Shown here piece by piece: positions 10,733 through 60,125 of a stretch of 64,000 nt of DNA. Position numbers and translations under genes: made by a program. A model generated the notes under the pieces. It was not told the origin of the DNA and made no database searches. It saw only the letters and a list, made by a program, of their open reading frames with translations. Source of the stretch: Geosiphon pyriformis uo1 (Eukaryota > Fungi > Glomeromycota). The first letter of the stretch is position 1. Each line of letters starts with the position of its first letter. The stretch lies in contig JAAOMT010000226.1 of assembly GCA_016748015.1 (NCBI GenBank), forward strand, positions 287,250 through 351,249, given 5' to 3'.

Positions 10733-13700
10733 TTTAATGTTCTTAGTGAGATATAATTTAACAGAAAACCAACACCAATATCAACCATTTAAAAAAGTGA
10801 CAGACCAAGAAATTATAAGAGAAAACCATTTAAAATTTGTGAAATCTTTATTTTAACATTAATAAATTTAATTTAAATTAACAAGTAATTATTGGTTAAC
10901 AGAATCAGCTTTTAATTACTATGTTAACAAAAAAATTAAATTCTACTTAGAAGACCAAAAAAATCCAGAAGTTATTCTTAACAATTTCTATAGTGAATTA
11001 TTTCAAAACACTACACTTCTACTAAACCATTTGTTTCCATTACTAATTACAGAAATAAACAAAAAAATTGAAAATTACACTTAACAGAAATTTTTTGTTA
11101 CTTTCACAGATAAAAAAAATTTATAAACTTTAGCAGAAACACCAAAAAAATTACAACTACCAAATTGAAAAAAACCAAGAGTCATTTTACCTATTCATTT
11201 ATAATACCATCATATATCCAGAAGTATTATATACATACTCTTAGAATCTGTATCATCATCAACTATGAAAACATTATTACTTAGAGTACTATTCTAAAAT
11301 TATCAAGAGAAAGCCAAATTATTAAAAACTTATAATAATTACTTTAAAGAATTTAAATTGTGATTAACAATACTATTAAGACTTCAATTACTGTTATCTT
11401 AACCAGATTTCGAATCTATCAGTTATTGGGAAGATACTAATTCAGAAGAAAAAAAAGACAATGATCAAAAAAACAATAATCAAGACCTAATCTCAAATAA
11501 CTCAAAAATACAAACTTTGATTATTTAAACTCCACAAAACTTGAACAATTCAAACCTCATTTTTATTATTTAGTAAGACTTACCTTTAGTAATTGTGATC
11601 AATTCACCAGTTGTATTAATTGTATCACCATAACAACAATCTCAACCATAATCACAACAAGAATTACTAGCACCAATAGCATATGTATCTATTGTCAAAC
11701 TCGAGAAATTCATTAACAAAAAAGACAATGTCCAAATATAATTAAATAATATTACCAAAACAATTACAATTAATAACTGAGATAACATTAAAGCTTTTTA
11801 AGCCATTTTTTACTTCTTACAAAATACTGCTAACTTATTATATTAAAACTTAATCAACAAGTTACAAACCTTTAACACATTTAAAACTGTGTTTCTGTAA
11901 TAGTTTAGCAATCACAACAGCATCAATTATCTGTTAACTAGTTTTACTATTATTAAACAGAGTAATACAAAAGCAATCACTACTTACTTAGAAAACTTCC
12001 ACAAGAATCTATGCCAAATTCAGACAATCTAAGTTAACTACTTTACAAAAACACAAATTTTAAATTAGTTTATTTGTAAATTATACAGCAGCTTATTACA
12101 ATGAGTACATTTAATGCACTTAAATACTCTTTAAAATGCAGTAACTTATGCCAGAAATTTTGAATTGGCCAAATTCAAAGCCAATTATATCCAAGCTGTT
12201 AACTTAGTGATAAATGGATCATTTGAATTGAATACCAAATTGAAGCAATTTGGTAAAATTATTAATCAAAAAATCAAGAAATATTTCGTTAATAATCAAG
12301 CCATCTATTAGTCTTTTCAATACTATAACAATTAAAAAAACTCAAATTATTTCCAGAATTAATTGTGCCTATCATTTTCATCAACCAATTAATTATGACA
12401 GTAAGAAACACATATCTGTTATTATTATAATAAATAAAAACACTTAATATTAAACTACTATACAAGATTAAATAATTAATAATCAGAAAATCAATATTAA
12501 AACTCCAATCAATGATTTTAAACTCTAAATTACATCCAAAATCAGAAATTATATCAATTTTATTACACTTCAATAATACAACAACCAATATACTTATCTC
12601 TATTATATCAAATTCCAGCACCATTTATTTATTAGCCACAGCCACAAATTATTTTTCAACCCTAACCAATTCAAACACTACTTTAAAACATAGTTCAAAT
12701 ATTAATTAGCAATCAAAGACTGAAAATTACTTACATACAACAGAATTAGAGATCAGCAATAGTAATATACTAATCAATTTCTAGTTTATTAAATCAGTCA
12801 TAAAGATCACACCAGTAAAGTTTAAGAAGTAAGTATACTCAAAATTTAAATTTCCAAAACTATTTAAGTTTTTTAGTCACCTCAAAAACCAACTTATCCA
12901 ATAATTTGAAAAGCCTAAAAACACTAATTATCAGTAATATTCTACTAGCAATTATTATTGAAAACAAATCACTTGTAGCTTTATTTCTCTTTAAAATAAA
13001 AGAATCAACAATACCACTTTTATTTATTAAAGCCATTTTTAATACCAAATCAATCACTGCTATATATACTAACACTAAAGTTAATGGTTATCTTATTAAG
13101 CTAATTTTTGATAATAGTTTAGTAAACAGCATCATTATATGACAACTTATAGACTAATTAAGTTGTTGAGTTGATTATACTGCCAATACCAGAATAATTT
13201 TAGCCAATAAAACAACAAAAACTTCTATTGGCAAAATTGATGACTTTCTATTTAAAGTCAATGTATTATAATACCTATTAAGATTTTTGTGATAAAAGTT
13301 ACACAGTACTAAGCTCTTATTGGTAATAATTAGCTATTTAAGACTAATGCCATACTTGACTAGATTATGCAAGAGCTATAGCTCAGTTAAAATGGTCAGC
13401 AAATTTAGATACCAGCTACTTACAGATACTTTAAAGCTCTTTCAAGAAAACAATCATTGATTAAGTTGAAAGAAAAAAAAAACCTACTTGAGAAGTCTAT
13501 TAAGTCTTATAGACTAAGAATAAACACAATAAATTATTGTTAATATTCACTTGAAACAATAAAAGAAAAAAGAAAGAAGGAAATGAACCAGAAGTCATTA
13601 CAGTTACTAAAAAAATAACCAGTAACTAGAACTGATCATATTTTATAGACACCAAAAAAAAACTGTTGTATATTTTACTTAAATACATCGACTGTAACAA

Positions 13701-19074: not shown

Positions 19075-19972
19075 TGTTACTTATAGAACATAAAAAGTAT
19101 ATTAGCATATAAATTAGCCAATCAGAAGTAGCCATAGTAAAATGTGAAATTCCAGGATTTCTTTCAAAAGAAATTGCAGAATTCCAGGAATTTCAGAATT
19201 CTCGTACAAAAGAATCACAAGATTCTAAAATTTCAGAATTCCACTAAAAAAAAATTGCAGGATTCCAGGAATTCCAAAATTTCTGGTGTGAAAAATTGAG
19301 GAATTGAGGAATCTCAATTATGTATATATAGCAGTAGTGCTAAAAGTAAAAAAGGCAGAATTCTTTAGTTAGAGACCTCTCAGTTTAGATTTGATCTAAG
19401 CAACCTTCCAATATTACAAATATCAATAAATAATTATTTACTATCTCCAATTTCACTCTTCACTATCAACACTTTATGTTGATAACAAGTAATACTTAAC
19501 TACACTAGAACAATAGCTCTTGATCACAGCTATTAATGGGATACTAACTTACAAATTGTCTTGGCTTATTTTCTTTATTTTTTTTTATTTTTTTTATTTT
19601 TTCTATTTCATTTCTGTGATTTTATTGTTGTGTACTAATTGATTGAAAGAGAATAACATGTGGAATACTGATGTCAAAGTGACTGGTAAAAGATCCAAGA
19701 ATAAGGGTAGAACATTCAATTAAGGATAGCTTATCAAGAGGAATACCAATTATCACACTGAAAAAAAAATTGACAAAACTATGGTTTTGGAAAGCTACAG
19801 ATAAACACTATTGAATCTCTGTCCATTATACAAAAAACTCAATTAAAATCTTTAGATAATAATACTTTTAGATACAAACAACCTTTAGATAAAATCATCA
19901 ACCAAAACATCCACCAAACACCAAGTTATGGGTTTGTTATTTCATTTGAGACCCCAAATCACACCTGTAACA
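19075..19972 (+). repeat. Element B 5' LTR
   Basis: Direct repeat of 47615-48505; U3 array of GAATTCCAGGAATTCC-like units ~19145-19315; TATATATA ~19323. Confidence 0.95.
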
Positions 19973-19990
19973 TTTGGTGTTCTCTGTAAG
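19973..19990 (+). promoter_or_regulatory. Primer-binding site of B (TT-TGGTGTTCTCTGTAAG)
   Basis: TGG 2 nt after the LTR end, complementary to a tRNA 3' CCA end; tRNA identity unresolved. Confidence 0.8.
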
Positions 19991-22900
19991 GTATAATTTT
20001 ACAGAGAACCAGCACTAACAACAATCTAAACAGTAGCAGAATCTGAAGAAATAGGAACAAACCATTTGGAATTTGCAAAATTCTTATTCTAACATTATCA
20101 CACTTATTTCGGATTAATAAATAATAGTAGGCTAACAGAATCAGCTTTCAATTGCTATGTCAATGAGAGAATCATATACCATCTAAAAAGCCAAAGAGAT
20201 CCAGAATTCATTTTTAACAACTTCTTCAGTGAATTGTTTCAAAGCACTACTCTTTCACAAAACTACTTATTTGCACTCCTAATTACAGAAATAAACAGAA
20301 AAATTAAAAAATACACCAAACAGAAATTTTTTATCACTTTTGCCAATAAAGAAAAAGAAAGATTACAAACACCAACAGAAACACTAAAGCAAATTCAACT
20401 ACTTACTTGGAAGAAACAAAGATTTGATTCACCTATTAATCCATCATATTACTACACACCTGGAAGCACTATCAATATAATAAGCACAGCTACAACAAGT
20501 GTGACAATGCCACTAAACAGAATTCTATTTCAAAGTAAACAAAAAAAAGCAGAGTTATTAGGAACATATGGCAATTATTTTGAAGAATTTAAATCACAAT
20601 CTTCAATACTATTAGGAATTTAATCACTATCATTACAACCAGATTTTGGAGCCATTAGTTTTTGAGAAATAACCAATTCCGAGGAAGAAGAGAGTAGCAA
20701 TTAGAAAACTAGCAAACAAAATCCAATTCTAAAAAATTCAGAAATTAAAACTCCAGTTAATCAAACTCCAGAAAATCAGAATAATCAAAACCCTAACATA
20801 ATTAATCAACAAAACTTACCTTCAATAATCAAGATCAATTCACCACTCATTCTACCAATCACCAAACAGCAACAACAGCTACAACTGCTATCTCAACAAC
20901 AAATCCAGCAGCAACCACAATAACAACCAATGGCCTACACTCCAATTGCCAAAATAAAAAAATTTACCAGTGAAGAAAACAATGCCCAAGTATGACTTAA
21001 TGATGTGAAAAAAGCCATCACAGCTAATAAATAGAATAATGACAGAGTTTTTCAAGTGATTCTCTATTTTCTACAGGATACCGTCAACTCATAGTATTTG
21101 AGTTTAGCCACTAAACCTCAAATGTTCCAGGAATTTAAAATTGCATTATTGGAATATTTCACTAATAATAACAGTATTAATTGTCTAGTCAACATCTTTA
21201 CTACAATCAAACAGGGAGAAACTGAAGCAGTTACCACTTACTTGGGATGCTTTCACAGAAACTTGCACCAAATTCAAGCAATTCAAGCTGACTATTTTAC
21301 AGCATCACAGATCTTAAACCAGTTTATCTGTGGACTGTGCAGTAGCTTTTTCCAACATGTACACCCAATGCATTCACAAACTCTTCAAGATGCAGTCACC
21401 AATGTGAGAGATTTTGAATTGACAGAACTTAAAGCAAACCATGCCCAAGCTGTTAACCTAGTCATGAATAGATTATCTGACTTAGATTCCAAATTAAAAC
21501 AACTCAGTAATTCAATTAATCATAAATTGGAAGGATACTTAGCTGACAATCACACAATTTATCACCCACCACAATGATGCAATAACTCAAAAAACCCGAA
21601 TTGTTTCCAAAATTAGTCATGTCCATCATCATCATTATCATCAAATCAGCCATGGCAACAAGAGACACATGTCTGCCATAACTGTAGTAAACAAGGCCAC
21701 ATTAGAGCTGACTGCCAATTTTATAATAATAATCTATGATTGGAAAATTAATATCGAAATTCCAATTGCTGGTTTCAACCTAATTTAACACCATATCAAC
21801 CAAATTATTTACCTATAATACAACAGCCAATCTATCAACCACCAATTTATCAGCTCTCTGTACTTGTCATTTATCAACCGCAGTCCCAACCCATTTATCA
21901 GCCACAGCCTTAGGTAATTTATTAATCCCAATAAATTCAAACACCACCACAGAACTTACCTCAAAATGAAACTAAAAGGCCAAGACTGACACAACAAAGC
22001 TAGAGATCATTAATAGTAGTCCATCAACTGATCCCCAGTTTCTTCATGCCACCATCAGAATCTTGACAATAGAATTTGGGCACTAGGTACACCCAAAACC
22101 CGAATTCTCAGAACTATTTAAGTCTTCTGGTTATTCCAGAAAACATCACATTCACTAAACCAGAAACCAACCAAAAGTCACTTACTAGCAATATTTTACC
22201 AGCAACTATCTCCAACAATGGATCCCTAGCAGCTATTTTTTCTTTTAAATTAAAGGAACCAGTTGAAATGCCACTATTCAGTAAAGCCATCCTAGAATCA
22301 AAATCTATTACTGTGATATATACCAATGCTAAAGTTGATGGTTAGTACATTAAACTGATCTTAGACAATGGATTAGCTGGCAGCATTATTACATGACTAT
22401 TCATGAACCAATTAGGTCACCAAGTTGATTGTGCTGCCAATGTGTGCATAATTACTACTGATGGAGTGACCAAAACTCCGATTGGTGAAATAGACAACTT
22501 TCCATTTAAAGTCAACAACATCATAATACCAATTAAGGTATTGGTAATAGAAGCAACTCAATATCAGGCTCTTGTTAAAAATAACTAGCTGTTGAAAGCC
22601 AATGTCATGCTCAACTGAAACACCCAAAAACTGCAACTCAGCCAGAACAGCTACCACACATATGTGTCAGCCATCTGTGGTCATTTTAAGACTACTTTCA
22701 ACAACAAACTACTTATTGAATTAGAAGAAAAAGAAAGAAAACCTACCTGAGAAGTGTATCAAGTTTCCTGGGCCAACACTGAACACAATGAATTATTACC
22801 AGTACTTTCCTAGAACAATAAAAGGAAAGGTAAGAAAGAGAACACAACAGAAGAAAACACAACAACCAAAGAAATAACTAGTGGCTGGAAGAGATCCTAT

Positions 22901-23277: not shown

Positions 23278-24248
23278 TGTTACCAGTAGAATTTTAGCTA
23301 GTAATTAGCATAAAATTATCCTTATAATCCCTATAATTAATTAGTATATTAATATTATTTCAAATTATCATTTATTATTTAATCAATTATTACATATTAT
23401 GATTTAATTAAAATAATCTAATTAGTATAACAAAAAGTAGAATGATCAAATTACACAATACTCTGAACTTTGTAACATTCTAAAATTCATCGAAATTTAC
23501 AAAAATTCGCCGAAATTTATAAGAAATTTGCCGAAATTATGAATAGTTCACTCAAATTAATCAATAGTTCAGCGAAATAACTTGTAGTTCATCAAAATTT
23601 GAGCAAAAAGAAAAAGTGCAAGTTTATAGACTAGTATTACAACAAGTTGTATAAAAAAAGAGCTTTTTTCTTCAAGAAAATGTATCTTACTTTAGATTTA
23701 TTACTTAGAACCATTCCTACATACACAAAGAGAAATAAATATCAAATAATTTGAAAAACCAAATTTTTTAATTATTGCACTTGGAAAATCCCCAAAACCC
23801 AATTAACATTTTGAAATTGATTAGCTACCAATTTCAGTAAACTGTTAGTGACTCCAGACCTGGATAGAAAACGTTTCTCTTGATAAAATCCTATTTCTTT
23901 TACCTTTCTTTTATTTTTCTTTTCTTTTCTTATTACAATCATTAGAGTAGCCTACAGACAAGATTCCTGTAGAAGAGTTGACTTTCACAGCAAAATAACT
24001 ACACATTTTTAGTGAGCTTTCAGATGAGCAATTCTTGGAAAAGAGTTGACATTTACTACAATGTAACTACATAAAATAACTGGCAAGAAATTGGCCATTT
24101 CATTTATAAGCCCAGCAGTTTAAATTATAAGAGATAATTTGAAGATAAATTCAGTTATTGGAGGTTCAACTACTTCTAAAAAACGTGAATTTACAACCAA
24201 CAGATAGTTACAACATTCAAGAAAAGAGACCAAAAACCTCCAGTAATA
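23278..24248 (+). repeat. Element C 5' LTR
   Basis: Direct repeat of 32189-33157; ~20-bp TTCGCCGAA-type repeats ~23480-23600; TATAAAA ~23650. Confidence 0.95.
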
Positions 24249-27200
24249 TTTGGTGCTCTCTCACAAAAATAACACAGCAACAACAAATTCAAAGTGGTAA
24301 CCACACCAGACACAACAACTTTAGAGTATCATCAGTTAATTTACACTCACTGCAAGCAAAGATTCAACATCCCAGACGGAATTGAAGTTGTCAAGAAATC
24401 AGTATACCAATATATTGAAAATTACATCAATAATTATCTTTTTAGAAATTACAACATTTCAGAAGTTAGAAGCAACCTCTACAATAATCTAGTGCACTAT
24501 TCACGATTGGAAACTAAAGACCTTAACAGTAAAACACTTGCCATCTACTTTCAAGAACTCAATTACAACATTATCAAATATTGTGAAGAAAAATACCCAG
24601 TACAGTCTAAATATTCTCTTAACTTTGAATCAAAAACAGAAACAAGCAACAAAGGCAAACAAAAAGTAAAACAATACTCAAGAACCACTCCAAACACTCC
24701 AATATTACCAAAGACAACTGCCAAACACTTGCAAACACCTGAACAAAGAATCAGTGTCAAATTACCACTTTCTATTACATCATTTCCAATTTCATTTGTT
24801 CAATCACAAACACCAAGTTCACCATTTAACTGTTTCTCTAAACCAGAAAATTTTCAGTCACCTAGAAATCTTACTCAACAACAGGAACCAATATCAACAA
24901 ATGCCAATATTATTGATTACTTACAGGAAAACGAAAGTAATCATTCAGAAAGCTTGGAAAGTGAAAAAACTGAACCAGAACCAGAAGAAGCCCCAAAAAA
25001 TGAAGAAGAAATGACAACTGCTTATATTGCAAAGATTCCAGAATTCACTGGTGAAGATAATGATACCAGTCCTCAAGAATGGCTTGACAAAATTTAAAAA
25101 ACAGGAGATACAAATAGTTGGAATGCAGCAAGAATGCTCAAAGCAATTCCATACTTTCTCCAAAACACTGCAGGAAAATGATTTGAAAACTTAGAAGAAC
25201 CATTTGAAAACTGGCAAGCATTCAAAGATGTTTTCCTATAACAATTTACTGACAACAACACTTCTATCACTCTCAGGAACCACTTTTGCAATATCAAATA
25301 AGAAACATCTGAAACTGTTATGACCTATCTTGGAAGATTCAACAAACTTCTCAGATGAATCTGACAATTGGAAACCAATAACTACTATTCTGATGCTTAA
25401 ATTCTGGATCAATTTATAGCAGAGTTAAAAGACAAACTGATTAAAAAAGTCCATCCACATGCTCCAGCAGACTTAGCAACTGCTATTAGACATGCAAAAA
25501 GTTATGAAATGGCAATGAAAAAAGCAAATCACACCAAGCTTGTAAACCTTGCAATTGGAGAAACCAGCTCAGTAGCTGAAAAGAAAATAGACCAATTTAC
25601 AAAAAAGGTTGAAAGCTACTTTACAAACCAACAACAATAGCAACAACAACTACAAAGATATCAATCTCTACAACAATGCAACCAAAACAACTTTGGATCA
25701 CCATCTAATAACCAACTTCAAAATTGTCACTATTGTGGAATTCCAAAATACTGGAAACGAGATTGCAGAAAACTACAAAGAGACCAACAAAACAGGAGTA
25801 ATCAATGTTATTCTTTATCACAACAATCTTATTACCAACCTCCACCACCAACCTATTATTTATCAAGACCACAAAATTAAAACAGTTACTATCCACCAGC
25901 TCCACAACCAATGCAGCAACAATATCAGCAATCTTTACCAATTTAGCCATATCAGACACCACTCACTTAACAATATCAAGTACCAGCAAGAAAATTGGTT
26001 CAACATAACCAATTCACATCCCAAAATCAATTGCAGAGTAACAACAACAGAATCAATCTAAATAACCAATTGGTTCCCCAAAATTCTGGTCAGCAAAGAC
26101 CTAATCACTATCACACTCAACCCAGTTATCTTATAATACCAGAAGAATCGGATTTTCAACAAACTGCACTTTCTGAAGATGAAGTTGTAGTACCAAGATC
26201 AAACCCTTCCAACCACACCATTTCACCAGCTCAAATTGCCCAAAATACCAATCTGTCAGATATATTTCCATTTGAATTTGAAGCAAATGAATCACCATTT
26301 CTGCTTAGTAATGCAGCAGTCAATGAACAGAAAGCAATTACTACTATGTACACAGAAGCTACAGTAAAAGGAAAACCCATTCGCTTAATCTTAGATAATA
26401 GATTGGCTGGAAGTATCATCACTTACCAGCTGATGCAACAACTCAAACAAAATGTAGACAAACCAGCTCAAACAGTTATTGTCATAGCTAATAGTATGAA
26501 AAAAACTCCAGTAGAAGAAATTGATGATTTTCCTTTTACAATTAATGGAATCACCATTCTAATTAAAGTTTTTGTTATAAATGTACCCCAATACTAAGCT
26601 TTAGTTGGAAATGATTGGCTTCTCAAGGCTAATGCAAATCTGAACTGGGAAACTCAAGAACTTAAAATCTCATACCAAGGACAATATACCATAGTACCTG
26701 CAACCTGTTGTACTTTTAACAAATAATCAGAAAAAGCTCCAGTATTTGAATTTGAAGAAGAAAAGGAAATGCCACTTACTGAAACTTACATGGCTCTTGA
26801 ATCACCATCTAATTGGGCTGAGAAAACAGAACAAGAGATTTTTAAAAAATTAAGAGAATAGAAGAAAATTAAATATTTCACACCAGAACCACGAAAAAAA
26901 CCACTATACATTCCATTAAAATGCAAAGATTGCAAAAAGAAGCTTTTATCTATGGAAGCCTGTATTTCCCCAGAAGAAAAATACAAAACTCGCACTTGTT
27001 ACTTCTGCAAGGCATGCCATAAAGGATGATTTGGATCCCCAAAGAGAAGTGGAAAATAAGACAAAACTTCTTGCCTTACTTGTGAAGAAATGCTACCAGA
27101 AGAATGCAATTGGATTGATGTAGCAATGAGAAGAGGAATATGTGATCAGATCTGTCAATATGCTCTATCAATTTCGGAAAAAGTCAGAAGAGGAACACCA

Positions 27201-29915
27201 TTTGATGCAGCATACAACAGTGCTCTCAATAAACTTTACCACTATCCTCATGAGGCTGAAATGATTTTTGACTTAGCAATAACATTGATCAATAGAGCCA
27301 CCCAAAAAGATGTCCACCAAATGAAAGAAGCTAAATACATTGAGTATACCATAGAATTAGCTGAATTTGATTATGAAGATGAAGTAGAAACCTACCACCA
27401 AATTGCAAGCCACATATATCCGACCAAAGAAGCTCAAATTCAATGATTAGAGCAAATGAACATTCAATTGTGTGAAGTATGTGTTATGCCTTGTGATAAC
27501 CAATAGTGTTTAAAATATTATGCTCTTAGCATTTCTCTGCCAGATGAGAATAATGAAAATAAAATCGAATTTGGAGTATTTGAATTAGTAAAAAACTATT
27601 AACCACTCCCATCTATCTTCTTGAAAAGCAACTATCTCTACAACTTAAATATTTTGACAACCATGGCCAAGGAATCAAACCAGAAAAAGCACACGAAATT
27701 GATGCTGGATATGACTTAAGATATCCAGGAAAAAATACTTTGGTTCTCCAATCAAAGTCCTTGACAAAAATCAATCTCAAAATTGCTCTTGAAATTTCAC
27801 CAGAAGCAATGGTTCAAATTGCCTCCAGATCATCATTGGCAAGCAATGGAATCAATATTAAAGGAGGAGTTATAGATGCAGAATACACTGGAGATATTAC
27901 CATCATGTTACAGAATGAAACAGACAAACCATTTAAAATTGAACATGCTGAAAAAATTGCTCAAGCAATTTACTTACCCTTAATCAAAATTTCGGGTTTA
28001 CAATCAGTAAACAACAAAGAACAATTGGGAAAAAGTGAAAGAGGAACTCAAGGTTTTGGTTCAACTGGACGATTTACAGTTTCAGTAAACATAGCTCTTA
28101 ATACACAAAATAAATCTCACCAGATTCTTCAACTTCCCCAGCCAATTACCATTTCATCTTTTGAAGAACATCACAAAATTTACACTTGCTCAAAACCCAT
28201 CACTACACAACAAATCTTTGAATTCAATGAACAAATCTGTTTGAAGCATGAAATCTCAATTCCAAACGTTTATATTCCCAAAGAAATGAAAAAATTTTGA
28301 GTTATATTCTACAACCCCAATAATTACCCTATTGTCTTATTAAACAAACTAGAGATTGGAATCATACACAGCAATATTTTTCAAGATGAAAACCCTCAAA
28401 TTGTCTCTAATTTCATCGAAATTGTAAGGTATACTCTACTCCCAAATCCAAATATCATTCTCACTACTGAAAACTACCATTTTTTGGAAAAAAAACTCTC
28501 TCAAATCAACATGAGTCCTTTAGAACTTCAACAACAAAGACAATTGAAACAATTGATAGCTGAATTTGCAGATATATTTGCAAAGACAACAATGACCTGG
28601 AAAAAACGGATATGGTTCAACATCAGATCCATATAAGAGATACTCCACCAAAACATTAGCAAGCTTACAGAGTGCCATCTGCCAGCCACCAATTCATCAG
28701 AGAAGAAGTCCAGAGAATGCTCAATAACGGATTGATTCAACCATCAAGAAGTCCTTGGGCCTCACCAGTAGTCTTTGTCAAAAAGAAAAATGGAAAAATC
28801 AGATTTTGTGTTGACTATCACCAATTGAACAATATGACAATTGAAGATGCCTATCCTCTTTCAAGAATTGATGACATGCTAGATGCTCTAGGAAAAGCCA
28901 AGTCTTCTCAACTTTAGACTTAGAAAGTGGATACTGGCAAGTTGAAATGAATCCAAAAGACCGACCCAAAACAGCATTCACTACCCAAGAAGGAAACTAT
29001 GAGTTCAATGTTATGTCTTTTGGACTCTGCAATACACCAGCAACATTCCAACGACTTATGGATGTTGTATATGAAGAACTCTTATGGCAATTAGTAGTTG
29101 TTTACCTTGATGATACTGATGTGTATTCACCAAGCTTTGAAGCCCATCTTATTCACCTATGAGAAATTTTTCAATGATTACAGAAAACAGGATTAAAATT
29201 AAACATTGAGAAATGTCACTTTGGAAAAACAAGCTTAATCTTTCTTGAATACATTGTAAGCAAAGATGAAGTCAAACCAAACCCTGGAACAATCAGTGCT
29301 GTCAAAAACTTCTAAACTCCCAAAAATACTACAGAGCTACGAAGATTTGTAGGATTAGCCTCTTACTATTGGAAATTCATCAAAGAATTCTCAAAAATTG
29401 CCAAACCACTCAATTATCTTACCAACAAAAATGTACCATACAAATAGACAGAAGAACAACAGAAAGCTTTTAAAACTCTCAAAACAAGATTGAAAACAGC
29501 CCCAGTTCTTGCATACCCAAACTTCAACAAACAATTTCAACTAGCCACTGATGCTTTACACATAGCATTCAGTGCCATCTTATCACAATTAGATGAAAAT
29601 GGGCAAGAACAAGTCATCGTCTATGCTAGTAGAACACTCAAACCAACAAAACTAAAATACGGCTCAACTAAATTAGAAGCTGCTGCAGTTATTTGAGCTC
29701 TTAAACATTTTTAACAATATCTGAAGAATGGAAAAGAATTTGACATAATAACGGACAACATTGGCCTTAAATGGCTCAATAAAAAGAAAACTGAACAAAG
29801 TGCCAAACAGTCTTGATAGAATGACTTCTTAGCAGATTACAGATATATTGTACACCACAAACCAGGAAAACTACATACCAATGTTGATAGCCTCTCAAGA
29901 ATGAGACAAGATTAA
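24189..29915 (+). pseudogene. gag-pol: Element C polyprotein: N-extension-Gag-PR-Cys-rich-dUTPase-RT-RNase H
   Basis: One frame from the LTR through 27446 (ORFs 24294, 25995 and 27090 share a frame); Zn knuckle CHYCGIPKYWKRDC at 25725; PR ILDNRLAGS; dUTPase; RT YLDD 29103-29114; ends NVDSLSRMRQD* (TAA 29913-15). Confidence 0.93.
27665..28072 (+). other. dut: Trimeric dUTPase domain within Pol of C (also D ~40550-40951, B ~33690-34095, A ~14535-14960)
   Basis: All five motifs present: DAGYDL, ASRSSLA, GGVIDAEYTGDI, EKIAQ, RGTQGFGSTG. Confidence 0.93.
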
Positions 29916-31358: not shown

Positions 31359-31500
31359 ATTTTACAATAATTTTCTAATAAAAACACAAAGACAAAAATA
31401 ATAAATAATTACAAAACACCCAAACCCAAAAACAAATAAAAACCCCATATCCAAAAATAATTTTTTTTATTCTTTCTTTTCATAATTAGTCAATTTTATT

Positions 31501-32208
31501 ATGATTATTTCCCGAAATATTCAACAAATATCCCAAAAGTTAATGTTAGCCTTGAAAACATTTCCAAACTTATCCATAACGATTAATAGAAGTTAAATTA
31601 ATTACATTCAGAAAGAAACCACAGCCCCAGTAGCAAATCATTTACAGAACTATCACCACTATGGAAAAAAAACAAGAAGTCACTCTGAAAATAGGTTACC
31701 AAAACTTTTGAAGCAAGCATTGAAAGAAAATTTTTTAATTGCCCCTATTGACATTTTACCAAATACTACAATGTAACAAAAACTTTTACTACTTCTCAAT
31801 GAACAGAACAATGGACACACCCTTATCTATAAATACTTTCACATTGGAAAGACACTTTATGAACGAAAACTGGAACTTGAAGCAACAAATCTCACTCCTA
31901 AAGCTATACAAAAACAAATTCACAATGAATTCAAAACAGCAGCTAGACTAACAAACACTTGCTACAAATTTAGAACAGCTTTTAGACTCTATAATTTGTT
32001 TAATACTTGTGAAAATGTTCTACAAAATTCAATACTACAACCAATAAAAGTCCAATACATTGGCAAACTCACAGAACTGAAATTTCAACAATTTTCAGAC
32101 TAGATTACTTCAATTATTTTGGATCACTATCTCAATATTACAGATAGTACTTGGACTTTGATAGAGCTCAGTCTTGAGGAGAAGATTATATTACCAGTAG
32201 AATTTTAG
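31501..32208 (+). pseudogene. Element C ORF3 (~235 aa, unknown function) running through the PPT into the 3' LTR
   Basis: MIISRNIQQISQKLMLALK...YFHIGKTLYERK...RLYNLF...IGKLTELKFQQF...LEEKIILPVEF* in one frame with three TAA/TAG stops at Gln-like positions; homologous in D, B and A. Confidence 0.85.
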
Positions 32209-33157
32209 CTAGTAATTAGCATAAAATTACCCTTATAATCCCTATAATTAATTAGTATATTAATATTATTTCAAATTATCATTTATTATTTAATCAATTA
32301 TAACATATTACGATTCAATTAAAATAATCTAATTAGTATAACAAAAAATAGGGTGATCAAATTACACAATACTCTGAACTTTGTAACATTCTAAAATTCA
32401 CCGAAATTTACAAAAATTCGCCGAAATTATGAATAGTTCATCCAAATTAATCAATAGTTCAGCAAAATAATTTGTAGTTCATTAAAATGTATCTTTAGTT
32501 TGCCAAAATTTGAGCAAAAAAAAAAAGTGCAAGTTCATAGACTAGTACTACAACAAGTTGTATAAAAAAAGAGCTTTTTTCTTCAAGAAAATTTATTTTA
32601 CTTTAGATTTATCATTTAGAACCATTCCTACACACACAAAAGAAATAAATATCAAATAATTTAAAAAACCAAATTTTTTAATTATTGCATTTAGAAAATC
32701 CCCAAAACCCAATTAACATTTTGAAATTGATTAGCTACCAATTTCAGTAAACTGTTAATAACTCCAGGCCTGGATAGAAAACGTTTCCCTTGATAAAATC
32801 CTATTTCTTTTACATTTCTTTTATTTTTTTTTATTTTTTTATTACAATCATTAGAGTAGCCTACAGACGAAATTCCTGTAGAAGAGTTGATTTTCACAGC
32901 AAAGTAACTACACATTTTTAGTGAGCTTCCAGATGAGCAATTTCTGAGAAAGAGTTGACATTTATTACAATGTAACTACATAAAGTAACTGGCAAAAAAT
33001 TGGCTATTCTACTTATAAGCCCAGCAGTTCAAATTATAGGAGATAATTTGAAGATAAATTCAGTTATTGGAGGTTCAACTACTTCTAAAAAACGTGAATT
33101 TGCAACCAACAGGCAGTTACAACATTCAAGAAAAGAGACCGAAAACCTCCAGTAACA
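32189..33157 (+). repeat. Element C 3' LTR
   Basis: Follows the PPT; ends AGTAACA followed by TSD ACAA. Confidence 0.95.
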
Positions 33158-36100
33158 ACAAAGACAAGATCTAGCAGATGGCAAATGCCAAAGTAGAAGA
33201 TGCTATGCCCAGTGAAATATTAGACATCAAGAACCAGTTAACATTGTTCTGATTTCCAATCCAGATGTTTTTCTGGATCTGGAAACTGGCCCAGAAGAAT
33301 TTTATGAACACTATCAAAATTTGACACCAACTAAAGAAAAACAGGAACAGCATGTGGAAAAAATAAACACCCAATTATGTGACCACTGTTTAATCCCATG
33401 TGACTTCCAGTATTGTAATGAGTGTGACTTCATCTACAATCCATGACCATGTATAATTTACACAAATCCAGAGGAAAACAAGCCAATTAACAACTGTGTA
33501 TTAGAATCAGAATCAATTTTCAATCCCAATTCAAACTTTGACAATGATAATAACAAAAACAATAGTTTCAGCTCTGCTCAAAATGACAATGGAGATAACA
33601 ACAATTTAAACTCTAATTCAAATTCTGAAACATTTATCGCACTTTTTAATCTCACCAAGGAACAAGAACTTAAATGGTTTAGTAATAATAACAAAGATAT
33701 TATGCCAGAATGGGTGCATAATACCAATGCAGAGTTTGATTTGAGATATTCAGAGAAGGATGCCATCAAATTGGAACCATATTTGCACACATGCATTGAT
33801 CTCAAAGTAGCATTAGAAATCCCAGCAACAACAATAATTCAATTAGTATTTAAGAGTAGTTTAGGGAAAAAAGAAATTAACATTAAAGAAAGAATAATTG
33901 ATGCAAGATATGTAGAAAATATTATTGCAATGCTACAAAATGATTTAGAAAAGACTATGTCATAGAGCCAAATGAAAAGATAGCACAGGCAATATTCCTG
34001 CCTCTGGTTAAAATAGCTCAATTAGTATCAGTAGAAAACAGAAAAGAATTAGGGATTACAGCTAAAGAAATACAGAGATTCAGATTCACAGATAGAATAG
34101 ATATACCAGTCAATATGACAGAGAAAGAGGCTATTGACAAAGAAGAAATTATCTTCACCCATCAACCAATTTCCATTTCATCATATGACTAGTATATGAT
34201 AACTATAGAGAAAAAAGTGAAGGATCAAGTTCAAATATTTGAGGCAGAAGCACAACTTTGTAAATTAGGAGAGATTGGATTAATTAATCTACACATACCA
34301 GCCAAGAATCATAGTCACATTAAAATTTTTATTTACAACAACACGGAAAACATCATGGAGATATCAGAAGAAACTACCATTGGATACTTAACCATTGAAA
34401 TTAAAGAACAACAACCAAATCTTATTCCAAACTTTTCACAATTGTGTAGATATGTGGATATTACATCACAAACAATATATGGACAAGAAAAATATTATCT
34501 GCTCCAATCAGAACAATTAGAACAAATAAACTTGGGAAACTTAGACCCACTACAACATATTCAACTTAAAATGCTACTCAACAATTTCAATAATATCTTT
34601 ACCAGTAAAAACAAATTTGTTAGAATTGACATCATCCAATATCAAATTAAGCCTGGAGATGCAATGCCAATTAAACAGTAAGCATACAGAGTACTACCAG
34701 TTAGCCATAAAATCATTCGTCAAAAAATCAATCAAATGCTTGACAATGGGCTAATTCAGCCATTAATGAGCCCATGGTCATCACCAGTGATACTAGTCCA
34801 TAAGAAAATTGGGAAAATTTGCTTTTGTGTAGATTACTGGAAACTGAATGGAGTGACCAAAGGAGATAGCTATCCAACTCCAAAGATCCAAGAATTGTTC
34901 AATGCTTTTGGAGGAAAGAAATGATTTTTGACACTAAATTTAGACAGCAGTTATTGGCAAGTAGCCATAAAACCAGAAGACAAAGAGAAAACAGCTTTTA
35001 CAACTTGGGAAAGAAACTTTGAATTTGAAGTAATACCATTTGGCTTAACGAATACTTCAGCCACTTTTTAGTGACTTATAGAAATTGTTTATACTGGGTT
35101 ACTATGAAAATCAGTAGTCATATACTTGAATAACACCAATGTGTTCTCAAAAACATTTAATAATCATCTGTATTATCTTCAACAAGTGTTTGAAAGACTA
35201 AAAAGAGCCAAATTAAAGCTAAATGCAATTAAATATTTCTTTGAAAAGACTAAACTCAAGTTTTTGGGACATGTAATGAGCAAAAATGGAATCAAAACAG
35301 ATCCAGACAAGATTGAGATTGTTAAAAACTTTCTAATACCAAATAATCTCACAGAACTAAGAACATTCTTGGGATTTGCTAGATACTACTGCCACTTTAT
35401 CAAGAATTTTTCTAAAATAGCTCAACCACTACACCAACTCCAAACAAAAAACACCAAATATGAATGGACATAAATTCAGCAAGAAGCTTTTGATACATTA
35501 AGAAGAAAGCTTATTTAAGCTTCAGTACTAATTTATTCAGATCATAGCAAGCCATTCATAATCATAACTGATACATCTGGCCAAGCATTGGGAGCAGTAT
35601 TATCTCAGAAATGACCAGACAGACAAGAACATCCAGTAACATATGCCAGTAGAAGCTTAAGTCCAACTGAAAAAAACTATGAAACTCCAGCACTGAAACA
35701 CTTAGCTATCTATTGGGCTGTCACCAAATAGAAAAAATACTTGAGTCAAAAGTTTGATGTATACACCAATCACAAAGAATTGACTTCAATCCAGAAACAA
35801 GAGTTTGCAGATGATTGCCATGCCAAATAGAAAATAGAACTTTCATTATTTAATTATATAGTACATTATAAAAAGGGAAAAGAAAACAGAAATGCTGACA
35901 GATTGTCACGAATGAGACAAATCTAAAAACATTTCAACCCAAAAATATAACAAAAGATGAATATACAAAAATACCAACAACTTCAACATTATATAAATAT
36001 TCAATTGTTTAAAGAGAAATTATCTCAAAAGGAACAATACAACATAAAACAACAATCAAAATATTTTATCAACCACCAAAATATACTTTACCAAAAAAAT

Positions 36101-36452
36101 AGAAAGAATTCAGATCAACCAATTAGAGTAATCACAAAACTAGAGAAAAAAACAATATTATTCAACATGCACTCAGATTCAACAACAAGACATTTTCATA
36201 AAAAAGTAATCATAGAAAGAACTAGGAAAAGATACTATTGGCCATCAATATATCCAGACATCATCCAATATGTGCAAAATTGTGATGCTTGTCAGAGAAA
36301 AGAAGGAACAAGATCCAATGAACTATTAAGACCAATTAAAGTGGAATAACCATTTAATCATATTGGAATTGACTTAGTTGGACCATTATCAATTACCAGT
36401 AGAGGCAACAGATATATTGCAGTAGCCATAGACTATTTCACTAAATGGCCAG

Positions 36453-37164
36453 TGTTACCAGATAAAATTAGAGATATTATTTAGCATAAAATTATCTTTA
36501 TAATCTCTATTATTAATTAGCATATATTATTATTTCAAATTATCACTTATTACATTAGCAAAATGTCCAAAATTATCATTTAATTAATAATTCAATTTGC
36601 ACATAACATAAATGTAACCTAATTGTAATGATCAATCATGCAATACCCCGAACTATATAACATTCAAAAAACCAAATTCTTTAAATTATTGCACTTAGAA
36701 AATTTTCAAAACTCAACTAATGTTTTGAAATTAATTAGCTACCAATTTCAATAAACTGTTAGTGACTCCAGACCTGGATCAAAAACAATTTCCTTGACAG
36801 AATTCAATTTTTTTTTACATTTCTTTTATTTTTCTTTTATTTTCTTATCATAATTATTAAAGTAACCTACAGACAAGATTCCTGTAAAAGAGTTGACTTT
36901 CACAGCAAAGTAACTATATATTTTTAGTGAGCTTCCAGACAAGCAATTCCTGAGAAAGAGTTAACATTTACTACAATGTAACTACACAAAACAACTGGCA
37001 TGGAAATGGCCATTCCACTTATAAGCCCAGCAGTTCAAATTATAGAAGATAATTTGAAGATAAAATTCAGTTATCGGAGGTTCAAACACTTCCCATAATC
37101 ATGAATTAACAGCATTACAACAAACATACAAGAGCTAAGAAGAGACCAAAAACCTCTGGTAACA
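36453..37164 (+). repeat. Element D 5' LTR (712 bp; ~270-bp internal deletion)
   Basis: Matches 45038-46019 except for the segment between two ATTCAAAAA copies (45247 and 45518). Confidence 0.93.
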
Positions 37165-40100
37165 TTTAGTACTCTCCCACAGAAACAACACAGCAAAAAC
37201 AACTTCAAAGTGGTGACCACACCAGACACAACAACTCTAGAGTATTACCAGTCAATTTACACCCACTGTAAGCAAAGATTCAACATTCCAGACGGAATTG
37301 AAGTTGTCAAGGAATCAGTATACCAATACATTGAAAACCACATCAACAATTATCTTTTTGGAAATTACAATATCTCAGAAGTTAGAAGCAATCTTTACAA
37401 TAATTTAGTACACTATTCACAGTTGGAAACTGAAGACCTTAACAGTAAAACACTTGCCACTTACTTTCAAGAACTTAATTTTAACATTATCAAGTACTGT
37501 GAAGAAACATATCCAGTGCAGTCTCAATACTCTATTGATTTTGAATCAGAGACAAAAACAAGCAACAAAGACAAACAAAAATTGAAGCAATACTCAAAAA
37601 CCACCCCAAATACTTCAATACTACCAAAAACAACTGCCAAACACTTACAAACATCTGAACAAAGAACCAGTTCAAAACTTCCACTTACTATCACACCTTT
37701 TCCAGCTTTACTTGTACAAGCACAAACACTTAATTCACCCTTAAATCAATTTGCAAGACTAGAAGATTTTACATCATCCAGAAGTCCCACCAGACAACAA
37801 AAACCCCTTCAAACTAGTTCCAATCTCCTTAACTTTCTAGCTAAAAATCGAAGTGAACACTCTGAAACAGCAGTGAACAAAGAAAATGACTCTAAAATAT
37901 TTAAAGAAGAATCAATAGACAGTGAAAATGAAGAAGACGAAATAACAGCATACATCGCAAAAATCTCTGAATTTAATGGAGAAGACATTGAGACCAGTCT
38001 CCAAAAATAGCTTGACCAAGTTACTAAAGCTGGAGATGCAAATTGATGAAATGCTGCTAGAATGTTAAGAACAATTCCCTACTTTCTCAAAAGAACAGCA
38101 GATGAATGGTTTGAAAACTTGACCACCCCTTTTAATGACTGGACAGCTTTTAAAACTGCCTTCTTAGAACAATTCACCAATAACAACACCTCAATCACAC
38201 TTCGAAATTGTTTTCACAATATTAAACAAAAACCCTCAGAAACTGTCATAACTTATATTGAGAAATTCAACAAACTTCTCAAACAAATTTGCCAACTTGA
38301 AACTAATGATTATTATTCTGATGCTTAAATCTTGGATCAATTTATCACTGGTTTAAAGGATAAACTGATTAAAAAAGTTTGTCCACATGCTCCAGAAGAT
38401 TTAAACTCTGCCATTCAGCATGCAAAGAGATATGAAATGGCCATGGAAGAAGCCAATCATACAAAACTCATGAACTTAGCCATTGGAGAGACCAGCTCAG
38501 CAGCTGAAGAGAAAATTGACCAGCTCACAAAGAAAGTCAAAAACTATTTCACCAACCAACAACAACAGCAACCCCAAAGATATCAACCACCCCAAAGATA
38601 AAATCAAAACAACTTTGTATCATCCTCTAATAACCAGTCTCAGAATTGCTATGACTGTAGAATCTTTGGCCACTGGAAAAGAGATTGCAAAAAGCTACAA
38701 CAAGACCAACAAAACAGGAGTAATCAACGTTACTCTTCGCCACAACAATCTTATTACCAATTACCACTATCACCAGCTTACTATTTACCAAGACTGCAAT
38801 ATTAAACTGACTACTATCAACCTGCTCCACAGCCAATGCAACAACAGTATCGACAACCCATTCAACATTACCAAGTATCTGCTTGAAAATTGGTTCAACA
38901 AAACCAATTTGCACCACAAAACTGATTTGTAACAAACAACAACAGAATCAACCCAAATAACCAATTAGTTCCCTGAAATCCAGCTCAGCCAAGACCCACC
39001 TATTATCATACTCAACCTAGCTATCTTACAATACCTGAAAAACAGGATTTTCACTATACTGCACTCTTAAAAGGTAGAGCTACAGCATAACAACAAAACC
39101 CTTTCTATACTCCTATCACAATCCCACCAGCCAGAATTGCTGAAAATGCCAATCTTTTAGATATATTCCTTTTTGAGTTCGAAGCAAATGAGTCATCATT
39201 TCTGCTTAGCAATGCAGCCGCCAATGAACAAAAAGCAATTACTGCTATATACACTGAAACAGAAGTCGAAGAAAAGGCAATTCACTTGATCTTAGACAGT
39301 GAATCCGCTGGAAACATTATCACCTACCAGTTAATGCAACAGTTAAAGAGAAATGTTGACTGACTAGCTCAAACAGTAATTGTTACTGCCAATGGCATAA
39401 AAAAGACTCCAGTAGAAGAAATTGACAATTTTCTATTCACTCTTGATGGAATCATCATTCCAGTCAAAGTTCTTGTAATGGATGTGCCCTAGTATCAAGC
39501 CTTGGGAAATCCAAGAATTACAACTCTCCTATTAAAAACAATATGCCTAAGTACCCACTACTTGTGGTATATTCAACAAATGATCAGAAAAAGCCCCTGT
39601 CTTCGAATTTGAAGAAGAGAAAGAAAAGCCTGTAGTCAAAACATTTATGGCACTTGAATTAATATTTAACTGGGCTGAAGAAACTGAGCAAATGTATTTT
39701 ACAACAAACTCATATTCAGAGGAACCAGAAACCCCTGGATAGAACATCCCATATTTTAAACCAGAACCAAAAAAATGACATCCTTACATTCCGCTCAAAT
39801 GCAAGGACTGTCACAAAAAACTCTTCTCAATGGGAGCCTGTATTTCACCTGAAGAAGAATATGAAAATTATACTTGTTATTACTGCAAGACTTGCTACAG
39901 AGAATGATAGGGCCATCTAATAAAAAGAAGTGGAAAATAGGACAACACCCCTTGTTTGACTTGTGGAGATATGCTACCAGAAGAATGCAATTGGATTAAT
40001 GTAGCAATGAGAGGAGGAGTCTGCAATTAAATCTGCCAATATGCTTTATCAATTTCAGAAAAAGTCAAAAGAGAAACACCTTTTGATGCAGCATACAACA

Positions 40101-42793
40101 ATGCTCTCAACAAACTTTATCACTACCCCCATAATGCTGAGATGATTTTCGACCTAAAAATGGCATTAGTTAATGGAGCTACCAAAAAAAATGTTCGTCA
40201 AATGAAAGAAGCAGAATACATTGAATACACCATGGAATTAGCTGAATTCAATTATGAAAATGAAATAGAAGTGTATCATCAAATCACAAGTCACACCTAC
40301 CTGACTAAAGAAGCTCAAGCTCAATGGCTAGAACAAATGAACATTAAATTATGTAAGGAATGCATAATGTCTTGTAATAAACAATGGTGTTCTGAATGCT
40401 ATGCTCTTAGCATTCTCTTGCTCAGCAAAAGTAATAAATACAAAATTGAATTTGGAGAACCTGAAGCAACAGAAAAAATTGAAACAACACCCATCTATCT
40501 CATTGAAAATCAGCCTGTTTTACAACTCAAATACTTTAACAACAACGGACAAGGAATAAAACCCGAAAAAGCACATGAAATTGATGCTGGATATGATCTA
40601 AAATATCCAAACAAGGATACTCTCATTCTCAAACCCAAATCTTTCACAAAAATCAACCTCAAAATTGCTCTCGAAATCCTGCCAGGAGTAATAGTTCAAA
40701 TCGCCTCCCAGTTCTCTCTGGCAAGCAAAGAAATCAATGTCAGAGGAGGAATAATTGATGCTGGATATACTGGTGACATAACAGTAATACTCCAAAACGA
40801 AACTGACAAGCCATTTAAGATTAAACATGCCGAGAAAATTGCCCAAGCCATTTATTTATCCTTAATCAACATTTTGGGTTTACAATTAGTTAATCAAAGA
40901 GAACTATTGGGAAAAAGTAAAAGAGAAACCCAAGGTTTTGGTTCAACTGGATGATTCACAGTTCCAGTAAATATAGCCCTCAACAAACAGAAAGAATCTC
41001 ACCAGATTTTTTGACTTCCACAACCAATTACTATTTCACTCTTTGGAGAATACCCTAAAATTTACACTTGTAAAAAGCCAACAACCACACAACAAATTTT
41101 TGAGTCCAATGAACAAATCTGCTTGGAACATAATATCTTGATCTCAAACATTTATATTCTAGAAGGAACAAAGAAAATCCGAGTTACTTTTTACAATTCC
41201 AACAATTTCTTTATAGTTTTATTAAATAACTTAGAAATTGGAGTTATTCACAGTAATATCTTTCAACAAAAATTACCTCAAACAGTCCCCAATTTCTCTG
41301 AAATTATTGGACATTTACTACTAAAAATCAACCCAAACCCCAGCTCTGAAAACTACCATGTTGTTATAAAAAAACTATCTCAAATCAACATAGGACAACT
41401 TGAACCACAACAACAGAGCCAGCTCAAAGAGCTAATTGCAGAATTTGCAGATATTTTTGCTGAAAACAACAATGACTTAGGAAGAACTGATTTGGTCTAA
41501 CACCAAATCTATATAAGAGATACCAAACCAAGGCGACAGCAAGCCTACTGAGTTACTCCAGAAAGCCACCAATTTATCTGCAAAAAAGTACAACAGATGC
41601 TCAACAATGGACTTATCCAACCATTAATGAGTCTATGGGCCTCACCTATGGTCTTAATTAAAAAGAAAAATGGAAAGATACAATTTTGTGTTGATTATTG
41701 ACAACTCAACAGTGTCACTATTGAAAATGCCTATCTTTTTCTCCGAATTGATGATATGTTAGATGCCCTTGGAAAGGCCAAATACTTTTCAACACTAGAT
41801 CTAGAAAGCGGATACTGGCAAGTTGCCATGGACCTCAAAGATTGTTCTAAAACAGCCTTCACAACCCAAGGAGGAAACTACAAATTCAATGTAATGCCTT
41901 TCGAATTATGCAATGCACCAGCAACATTTCAGAGATTAATGGATATTGTGTACAAAGAACTTCTTTGAAAGTCAGTAGTCATTTATCTTGATGATACTGA
42001 TGTTTATTCTCCATCATTTGAATTACACTTAAAACACCTGCAAAAAGTTTTTCAATAATTACAAAAAGCAGAACTGAAACTCAACATCAAAAAATGCTAC
42101 TTTGAAAAAACAAGCTTGGCCTTTCTTGGTCACATCATTAGTAAAGATAGAATCAAACTGGACTCTGGAAAAATCAGTGCTGTCAAAAACTTCAAAACTC
42201 CTCAAAACACTACAGAACTAAGAGAATTCATAGGGTTAGCCTCCTACTATCGGAAGTTTATTAAAAGATTCTCAGAAATTGCAAAATCTCTCAACCAGCT
42301 TACTACCAAAAATGTCAAATACAAATGGACTGCTGAACACCAAAACGCATTTGAAATCTTCAAAGAAAAACTAATGACAGCTCCAATTTTTGCCTACCCA
42401 GATTTCAGCAACCGATTTCGGTTAGCAACAGATGCCTCTTATACTGCCTTTGGTGTCATTCTATCACAGTTAGATGACAATGGAAATGAGCAAGTAATTG
42501 TTTATGCTAGCAGAACATTGAAACCAGCCAAAAAGAACTACCCTGCAACAGAATTAGAAACTGCAGCAGTAATCTGGGCCCTACATCACTTCAACCTTTA
42601 CCTCAGACCCAAAGAATTCGATATTATTACTGATAATATTGGACTCAAATGGCTTCAGAACAAAAACACTCAGCTAAACGCAAAATAAATCTGATGGACA
42701 GGATTTCTAGCTAACTACCAATATATTGTACACCACAAATCAGAAAAACTCTACACCAACGTTGATTGTCTCTCAAGAATGAGGCAAGATTAG
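37105..42793 (+). pseudogene. gag-pol: Element D polyprotein (~1,900 codons reconstructed)
   Basis: One frame to ~39500, a ~44-nt deletion at the end of PR, then one frame through ORFs 40142, 41123, 41756 and 42116; PR ILDSESAGN; dUTPase; YLDD 41984-95; ends NVDCLSRMRQD* (TAG 42791-93). Confidence 0.93.
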
Positions 42794-42839
42794 AATACAA
42801 AACCAACACTCATTTGAATTAACAACAAAACAACAAACA

Positions 42840-47601: not shown

Positions 47602-47614
47602 AAGGAGGGAATAA

Positions 47615-50291: not shown

Positions 50292-50699
50292 ACAGCTAAA
50301 AAATTAATATCCAAAACAAAATTTTCTTTTAATTTTCTTAATTATTTTAAAAACAAACAACCAATTTTAAAACAAAAAAAAATAAAGTAAAAAAAATTTT
50401 TTTTTGTTTTTATTATTAATATTAAATTTTTTATTAATATTAAATTTTTTATTAATTATTATAAATTTTTTAACACATATTTTATATTTGTTTTTATGTT
50501 TTTATTTTATTTACTATTTAATATAATATAACAAATTAAAAATTTAAAACTAGATATAAATAAAATATTTATAATATATAACCAGTCATTTAAATTAATT
50601 AAAACTATATTATTATTTAAACCAAAAAAAAAAACAAATATAATATATGTAAATTAAAACTTATAATATATACTTTAATAAAACTAAGTAAATATATTA

Positions 50700-59990: not shown

Positions 59991-60125
59991 TGTTGTTTTA
60001 TTTGGTTTGAGTAATTGATCATATATAATAAAAACATAAATTGTATTTAATTTAAGCCATTTAGTTTAATTCTATATATTAAATAACAATTGAATTTCAG
60101 TCATAAAATGTTAATAAAAAAAATT

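Follow-up and report, generated by a model that had tools for sequence, protein, structure and literature searches.

We have found that a 64,000-nucleotide stretch of the Geosiphon pyriformis genome (contig JAAOMT010000226.1, positions 287,250 to 351,249; hereafter the window, numbered from its first letter) holds long terminal repeat (LTR) retrotransposons whose Gag protein carries a conserved N-terminal extension with a predicted GUG start. Nested, decayed, dUTPase-carrying Ty3/gypsy elements lie in the window, and four of them, A to D, are treated here. The part of the extension from 24294 onward in element C exceeds chance, and the extension is a conserved coding region, with homology that begins at a valine codon (GTG in C). 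We propose, with a probability of roughly 0.68 judged from sequence evidence, that weak GUG initiation combined with leaky scanning yields a long and a short Gag from one RNA. Translation would start at the GUG just after the primer binding site (PBS); some ribosomes would pass over this weak codon and continue scanning as far as the AUG of the capsid. Long Gag would consist of a predicted four-helix domain, a linker and the capsid, and short Gag of capsid and nucleocapsid (NC); the long form would exceed the short by 239 (C), 244 (D) or 299 (B) residues, with a family range of about 240-300, and would probably be the minor product.

The original prediction, made from the letters of the window alone, had described a Gag extension of about 270 codons, open from within the LTR and continuing across the PBS. 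The frame it observed has been confirmed and its interpretation is partly supported, with the start moved from the unique 5' region (U5) of the LTR to the GTG at 24294 and the length revised to about 239 codons.

A conserved GTG codon as candidate start

The features around the candidate start in element C are as follows.

24249-24268, + strand: TT spacer and putative PBS (TGGTG...), 3' end approximate
24269-24293, + strand: A/C-rich leader, 21 of 25 nucleotides A or C, with +1 and -1 nucleotide variants in other copies
24294-24296, + strand: GTG, the predicted start, in the context aaaGTGg (A at -3, G at +4), 45 nucleotides past the LTR end

The TGG that follows the LTR and a TT spacer was taken as the putative PBS. 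Similarity between the element families starts at a K/T-V-A motif. For its valine, A (10797), C (24294) and D (37210) use GTG, and B (20033) has GTA. In 190 motif-anchored gene models, drawn from 281 proteins, this column holds V in 160, M in 21, L in seven and I and N in one each; by family the counts are V55, M9, L1 and I0 in the B superfamily (n = 65) and V105, M12, L6, N1 and I1 in the C/D family (n = 125). Six other valine columns together gave one Met and 28 Ile. The excess of Met over Ile at the start column has a nominal Fisher p of 4e-12, or 5e-7 with internal Met only, values that are overstated by non-independence of the copies and by gene-caller bias. GTG is the sole valine codon that gives Met by one G>A change. 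GTG accounts for 10 of 107 other valine codons, and 0 of 103 are GTG with both A at -3 and G at +4.

The flanking residues are also constrained. A residue with a codon starting in A (K, T or N) precedes the valine in 56 of 56 B rows, and K does so in 103 of 114 C/D rows, while A, V or T follows in all 190; A at -3 is kept via the K, T or N codons and G at +4 via Ala. Up to this position, the only in-frame near-cognate codon of C and D with both A at -3 and G at +4 is the GTG itself, and the 25 nucleotides before it are 80-84% A or C. A published account of non-AUG initiation (PMC5666671) states that a purine at -3 and G at +4 weigh more for non-AUG than for AUG starts and that GUG ranks second after CUG. 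An eroded ATG at this column was rejected as a candidate, Val being predominant and the direction of decay being G>A.

The extension is a conserved protein

The extensions of the four elements and their parts in C are listed below.

24294-24635, + strand: predicted four-helix domain of C, ~110 amino acids, of no known family (from selection, AlphaFold and hhalign)
24636-25010, + strand: basic patch of C, then a P/S/T-rich acidic linker; the first part was modelled at low confidence and the rest is presumably disordered
37210-37941, + strand: D extension from aaaGTGg, 244 codons without in-frame stop or ATG; capsid start decayed to ATA at 37942
20033-20929, + strand: B extension, 299 codons from GTA (GTG in its family), five stops; capsid ATG at 20930
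10797-11675, + strand: heavily decayed extension of A, starting from aaaGTGa; ATA (11676) in place of the capsid ATG

Between C and D, transitions in codons 24273-24635 fall 8, 3 and 23 times at the three codon positions, and the proportions of non-synonymous and synonymous sites that differ are pN 0.039 and pS 0.202 (p = 1.7e-6). For transversions, pN/pS is 0.40 in the linker (p = 0.003), compared with 0.15 in the capsid, and neither domain nor linker gave a significant constraint signal in the other two frames of this comparison. Over the whole extension the transversion ratio was 0.43 (p = 0.0055). An antisense open reading frame (ORF) was rejected as an alternative, the longest ones reaching 62-78 codons.

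Transversions are few in the domain (24273-24635 against 37189-37551), at six in 120 codons compared with 58 in 199 capsid codons. This small number suggests recombination between subfamilies near the 5' end.

The B extension is a distant homologue of that of C and D (BLASTP 19 of 98 identical, E = 0.009). Family profiles built separately align in hhalign with a probability of 85.5%, E = 5.8e-6 and 20% identity, some of their rows having been recruited by a joint profile. AlphaFold predicts four helices in C (model residues 14-107) with a predicted local distance difference test score (pLDDT) of about 90, and an alignment of B sequences only returns the same four helices at lower confidence (mean 58). 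The structural search suggested with the original prediction was made: the domain had no match in Pfam, in PDB sequences, in the Atlas (C domain only) or in Foldseek at E <= 0.001. The best VIA match reached Z 6.9 (rmsd 3.3, 98 aligned); matches were generic helical ones, and no chain of the retroviral matrix domain (MA) stood among the Foldseek and VIA rows.

These results bear on whether the extension could be a non-coding leader or a dead relic, with Gag made from the capsid AUG only. The region is AUG-poor and A/C-rich as a leader would be, and it has no Pfam, PDB or fold match. Purifying selection specific to one frame, the protein homology between families in the hhalign comparison and the recurrence of four helices from separate alignments all stand against such a leader, which we regard as hardly credible.

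The homologues whose source was looked up come from one fungus. All 120 homologues listed of 295 for the D extension, and 27 of 27 for the B extension, are G. pyriformis gene models. A domain profile retrieved 302 representatives; 134 of the best 150 listed were new, the 10 of these that were looked up all came from G. pyriformis, and relatives in other fungi may stand among the 152 weaker ones. No DNA relatives turned up in metagenome or viral contigs.

Behind the domain, residues 116-150 have a net charge of +5 in C, +6 in D and +2 in B. K-K-x-R (W-K-K-x-R in the B superfamily) and K-R-Q-K motifs follow the domain (P0121-P0139, P0101, P0120), and we take them to resemble a monopartite nuclear localisation signal. 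The linker is rich in TP and SP sites. By Kyte-Doolittle hydropathy over 19 residues, no signal anchor or hydrophobic stretch was detected in the extensions of C, D and B, with maxima of 1.04, 0.88 and 1.28, respectively.

The reading frame varies upstream of the valine

Two features lie in the U5 of element C.

24186-24188, + strand: TGA of the Gag frame, common to the four C/D LTRs
24154-24247, + strand: U5 terminal stem-loop with a 13-bp stem; the loop differs between C and D, and the structure would be non-coding in the preferred reading

The frame described in the original prediction is real: in C it opens after the TGA at 24186, contains one in-frame stop (TAA at 24270, CAA at 37186 in D) and has its first in-frame ATG at 25011, and in D it is open from the TGA at 37102 to a capsid-start codon that is ATA (37942). 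The shortage of ATA also holds, the ATA of the decayed LTR end (24246) being followed by the next only at 24702, about 150 codons later. In C, D and B alike the frame runs open from U5 through the PBS. The V-T-F-G-x-L peptide noted across the PBS is present, but it is merely the translated LTR end (GTAACA) and PBS (TTTGGTG).

Translation from a non-AUG codon or an internal ribosome entry site (IRES) within U5, read through the PBS, would account for this open frame in C, D and B, and the U5 stem-loop is conserved; an equivalent stem occurs in the A and B LTRs. Each of the alignments has one pair with a two-sided change, which is weak support for the stem. Over the 19 U5 codons compared between C and D, non-synonymous changes make up 13.2 of the 14 transversions (ratio 3.3, p = 0.42), and a stop-free run of 20 codons at U5 composition has a probability of 0.18. 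The open stretch in U5 is therefore not beyond chance and is unconstrained in the Gag frame. No near-cognate codon in good context is shared there, and element A, like some inherited subfamilies, has a different frame.

Among gene models, the sequence ahead of the domain is translated in any of three frames. The B superfamily has 33 models with R-T-S-T-N, nine with E-P-A-P-T and six with N-Q-H-Q-Q; the rest of its 65 comprise seven unclassified and 10 too short or without V/M. In the C/D family the standard frame is found in 82, +1 in 16 and -1 in five of the 103 models with F-K before the valine; the other 22 of 125 rows lack F-K. These classes cluster on trees (nine changes compared with 15.0 in shuffled data, and 13 compared with 19.9; in each case 0 of 500 shuffles was as low, a result inflated by near-copies), so at least some are inherited. 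Because inherited 1-nucleotide length variants lie between the PBS and the domain in both families, the frame through the PBS is not conserved. Downstream of the valine, 97 of 118 models are ungapped across 112 amino acids. The frame classes largely refute a start in U5, which we consider very improbable. With U5 unconstrained, the frame varying by one nucleotide and homology beginning at the GTG at 24294, the view that the protein begins within the LTR and continues across the PBS is not supported. Non-AUG initiation of a long Gag, with a logic like that of glyco-Gag, is retained as the best reading; for an IRES no evidence was found.

Nearly all differences between the two LTRs of a pair (27 of 29 and 31 of 33) are C/T or G/A, so an inserted element can acquire an ATG from an earlier ACG or GTG. 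The ATGs within the LTRs are unshared: that at 24024 is ACA or ACG in D, that at 37000 is AAG or AAA in C and, for that at 19928 in B, the LTRs B3 and A5 have ACA while A3 has ATA. No in-frame AUG is common to the 5' LTRs of the copies, and a stop and a 1-nucleotide indel separate 24024 and 37000 from the extension. The in-frame LTR ATG of C (24024) was rejected as a start, being ACA or ACG in D and cut off by the indel and the shared TGA. Over the last 560 nucleotides, the sole ATG common to the four C/D LTRs is an ATG-TAA start-stop at 24061-24066 (+ strand), which may be a decayed ACG.

A start at an LTR AUG would require that a 53-codon ORF beginning with GGCATGG (37000 in D) be joined to the extension, either by a frameshift or by removal of a 35-nucleotide intron that spans the PBS (GTAACA...CACAG). 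The ATG is present in both D LTRs, 21 of 120 gene models begin at the 53-codon ORF and many use the CACAG join. The codon is AAG or AAA in C and encodes Thr in three models, as from a decayed ACG; a 1-nucleotide indel separates C and D inside the ORF, the stretch lacks a coding signal and the +1 and -1 variants after CACAG would disrupt the join. There is no counterpart in the A and B LTRs, and the CAG of B sits in a hairpin with the PBS (z -2.0). We judge this start improbable. A spliced leader joined at the CAG after the PBS was rejected likewise, as the +1 and -1 variants beyond CAG break it and this CAG is base-paired to the PBS in element B.

The hairpin in B is long and forms between the PBS and the next 25 nucleotides (19974-20019, + strand; z -2.0, with 7 of 200 shuffles as good). 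It is absent in C (z 0.2).

ATG depletion ahead of the capsid start

25011-25013, + strand: conserved capsid-start ATG, the second in-frame start (from family alignments)

Leaky scanning to this codon would be favoured by the scarcity of ATG in all frames between the PBS and the capsid ATG: two in C compared with a dinucleotide-shuffle mean of 8.0 (P = 0.002), two in D compared with 6.8 (P = 0.015), five in B compared with 9.6 (P = 0.037) and six in A compared with 10.3 (P = 0.055). Capsid regions have no such deficit (17-19 compared with 18-19 when shuffled). Met makes up nine of 26,283 residues in the C/D extension, compared with 2.0% in capsid columns. Ten ATG columns occur in this zone of the window copies, the capsid start excluded, and eight are missing from the partner copy; at the ATG at 24901 of C, G stands at 95% of the depth of contigs aligned to C (277 rows, 40 among the matches listed). 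The capsid-start Met is kept in 99 of 113 C/D rows and 27 of 35 B rows. The two outcomes named in advance as telling against an extension, an ancestral ATG near the PBS and neutral evolution, were both absent.

An out-of-frame ATG is common to C (25000-25014) and D (37928-37944), and its stop overlaps the capsid start codon. The family mix of N-E and N-K at this place (42% K) suggests that it may be a decayed CpG.

Points against the GUG start and the splicing alternative

Several observations weigh against GUG initiation with leaky scanning. At the family level, most evidence derives from automated gene models and not from DNA, and the copies behind these models are decayed and non-independent; gene callers favour ATG, 12 of the 21 Met at the start column are N-terminal and some internal M and L rows are artefacts of predicted splicing. 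Taken by itself, the deficit of out-of-frame ATGs is borderline when codons are shuffled (P = 0.05, 0.09 and 0.11), a test in which five of six control ORFs gave 0.86-1.0 and one gave 0.05. The domain transversions between C and D are all non-synonymous (6 of 6), a count too small to test. An unusual hairpin downstream of the GUG is absent (z -0.1 and -0.3), and the G>A-rate test for a decayed CpG had a background with a median of 0.13 and a maximum of 0.41. A good-context ATG stands in both D LTRs (37000 and 45855) and would open a 53-codon upstream ORF if ancestral, and the frame variants could have been mobilised in trans.

The GTG codon also fits a splice acceptor, since AG/TG (the slash marking the junction) occurs at it in all four window copies. 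An LTR intron ending there would remove the PBS and join an exon-final A to TG as AUG, with spliced RNA giving long Gag and unspliced RNA being translated from the capsid AUG. Such a split start would explain the conserved GTG, the free upstream frame and the AUG-poor zone; a donor-like tta/GTGAGC lies at 24012 in all four C/D LTRs, and gene callers use the AG/TG acceptor (six L rows). Most subfamilies would use AAG as the acceptor (K before the valine in 46 of 56 B and 103 of 114 C/D rows); it has no pyrimidine tract, T making up 7-17% of the last 30 nucleotides, and no branch-like site was found in C or D. A CAG lies 17 nucleotides upstream, and a CAG acceptor in that position is normally used first. 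No equivalent common donor exists in the last 350 nucleotides of the A and B LTRs, and the joined AUG would carry T at -3. We regard a split start, the main alternative to GUG initiation, as unlikely.

Possible role and comparison with known systems

A minor long form might co-assemble with short Gag, its helical domain and basic patch being displayed beyond the capsid by means of a tether. This is speculative, as is, at low confidence, a function of the long form as a targeting module, for which nuclear entry would be the likeliest role. Our broader proposal is tentative and somewhat less probable than not: that the elements purged AUG from 700-900 nucleotides of coding sequence, that a single genomic RNA thereby encodes a major Gag of capsid only besides a minor GUG-started one with the new four-helix domain on its long tether, and that this minor Gag, decorating the particle, is an independently evolved, sub-stoichiometric, matrix-like targeting module whose copy number is set by start-codon strength.

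In murine leukaemia virus (MLV), translation of the glyco-Gag gPr80gag starts ahead of the gag AUG, at an in-frame non-AUG codon with a strong context (CUG, also GUG). Its extension region is generally AUG-free, ribosome density on the long form is 6.7% of that on gag and the GUG is not well conserved (PMC5778647). The Geosiphon elements resemble MLV in an AUG-poor extension ahead of the Gag AUG with a predicted in-frame non-AUG start. They differ in being fungal Ty3/gypsy elements with an extension of 239-299 amino acids that includes a predicted soluble folded domain and has no signal anchor, and in a GTG that is conserved between families 20% identical. In PEG10, a domesticated mammalian retrotransposon-derived gag, an upstream CUG adds 34 amino acids ahead of a downstream AUG to give two isoforms (PMC2800197). 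The likeness is a retrotransposon-type Gag with a predicted upstream non-AUG and a downstream AUG start, and the differences are that the Geosiphon elements are mobile, use GUG and add a whole domain plus linker. By analogy, the best reading is that Geosiphon long Gag works like glyco-Gag and PEG10, yet is not glyco-Gag.

The gag AUG of yeast Ty1 lies in the 5' LTR, and the Gag frame reads through the PBS, a precedent for the original prediction. Unlike Ty1, the LTRs of C, D, A and B have no shared in-frame AUG, and their frame through the PBS is not conserved. MA can be myristoylated N-terminally on Gly2, although not in all cases. Retroviral MA lies before the capsid in Gag (PMC6525542). Its fold is small and helical. 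The predicted domain of long Gag is like MA in size, helical content and position, but its residue 2 would be Ala and not a myristoylated Gly, and it is predicted on part of the Gag molecules. In Caenorhabditis elegans, Cer1 Gag has a long helical region before the capsid that is not matrix-like, with a predicted coiled coil shared with CERV by splicing (PMC10309623). Cer1 and the Geosiphon elements have in common an LTR-retrotransposon Gag with a helical region, predicted in Geosiphon, ahead of the capsid, although the two regions look unrelated. The available part of the Cer1 account describes no non-AUG start.

Non-AUG Gag isoforms have been shown for gammaretroviruses and for the domesticated PEG10. 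In the open-access literature, covered mostly by listings, we found no report that a mobile LTR retrotransposon of fungi starts Gag at GUG or another non-AUG codon, and none of the domain. If the proposal is true, fungal elements evolved the glyco-Gag strategy independently and added a whole folded domain to it. LTR sequence makes up 41% of the G. pyriformis genome (PMC11952901). The domain accounts for many misannotated "hypothetical proteins" of this fungus (up to 302 representatives matched the profile), and annotation pipelines that require ATG overlook such extensions.

The elements and their setting in the window

Further features of elements C and D are as follows.

23278-24248, + strand: element C 5' LTR, 971 bp, TG...TA from a decayed CA, with a 4-bp target-site duplication (TSD), ACAA
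36453-37164, + strand: element D 5' LTR, 712 bp, with an internal deletion, TSD CCAG
25011-26600, + strand: capsid, zinc knuckle and protease of C in one frame, broken by stops (from Pfam and ORFs)

Element C is bounded by LTRs at 23278-24248 and 32189-33157 (94% identical, TSD ACAA), D by LTRs at 36453-37164 and 45038-46019 (TSD CCAG) and B by LTRs at 19075-19972 and 47615-48505. LTR ends read TGTTAC...GTAACA, with one-base decay in two of six LTRs checked. Within 9802-50290 the elements are nested, the B LTRs lying inside those of A, and C and D inside those of B; more element fragments occupy 33160-36450 and 46020-47610.

The Pfam order (Retrotrans_gag, Ty3_capsid, protease, dUTPase, RNase H, integrase) is that of Ty3/gypsy. 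The D capsid scores 45.5 bits for Retrotrans_gag (cut-off 24.1) and 33.1 for Ty3_capsid (cut-off 29.1), and the Ty3_capsid score of C is under the cut-off. In D, RNase H (42059-42685) precedes the integrase Zn domain (42783-43352), the reverse transcriptase core lying outside the ORFs scanned with Pfam. Gag and protease share one frame in C (25011-26600) and D (37942-39300), so there is no frameshift between them.

Element C has a Cys-rich insert of about 300 amino acids with several CxxC between protease and dUTPase (26700-27600, + strand), without a significant Pfam match. A third ORF on the sense strand, about 230 codons long, interrupted by stops and preceded by a T-rich stretch, lies between integrase and the 3' LTR (31480-32187, + strand); it has no Pfam match and is unrelated to the Gag extension. 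The 50000-63000 part of the window is very AT-rich (9-22% GC) and repeat-like, with inverted similarity between 51482-52881 and 57895-59297.

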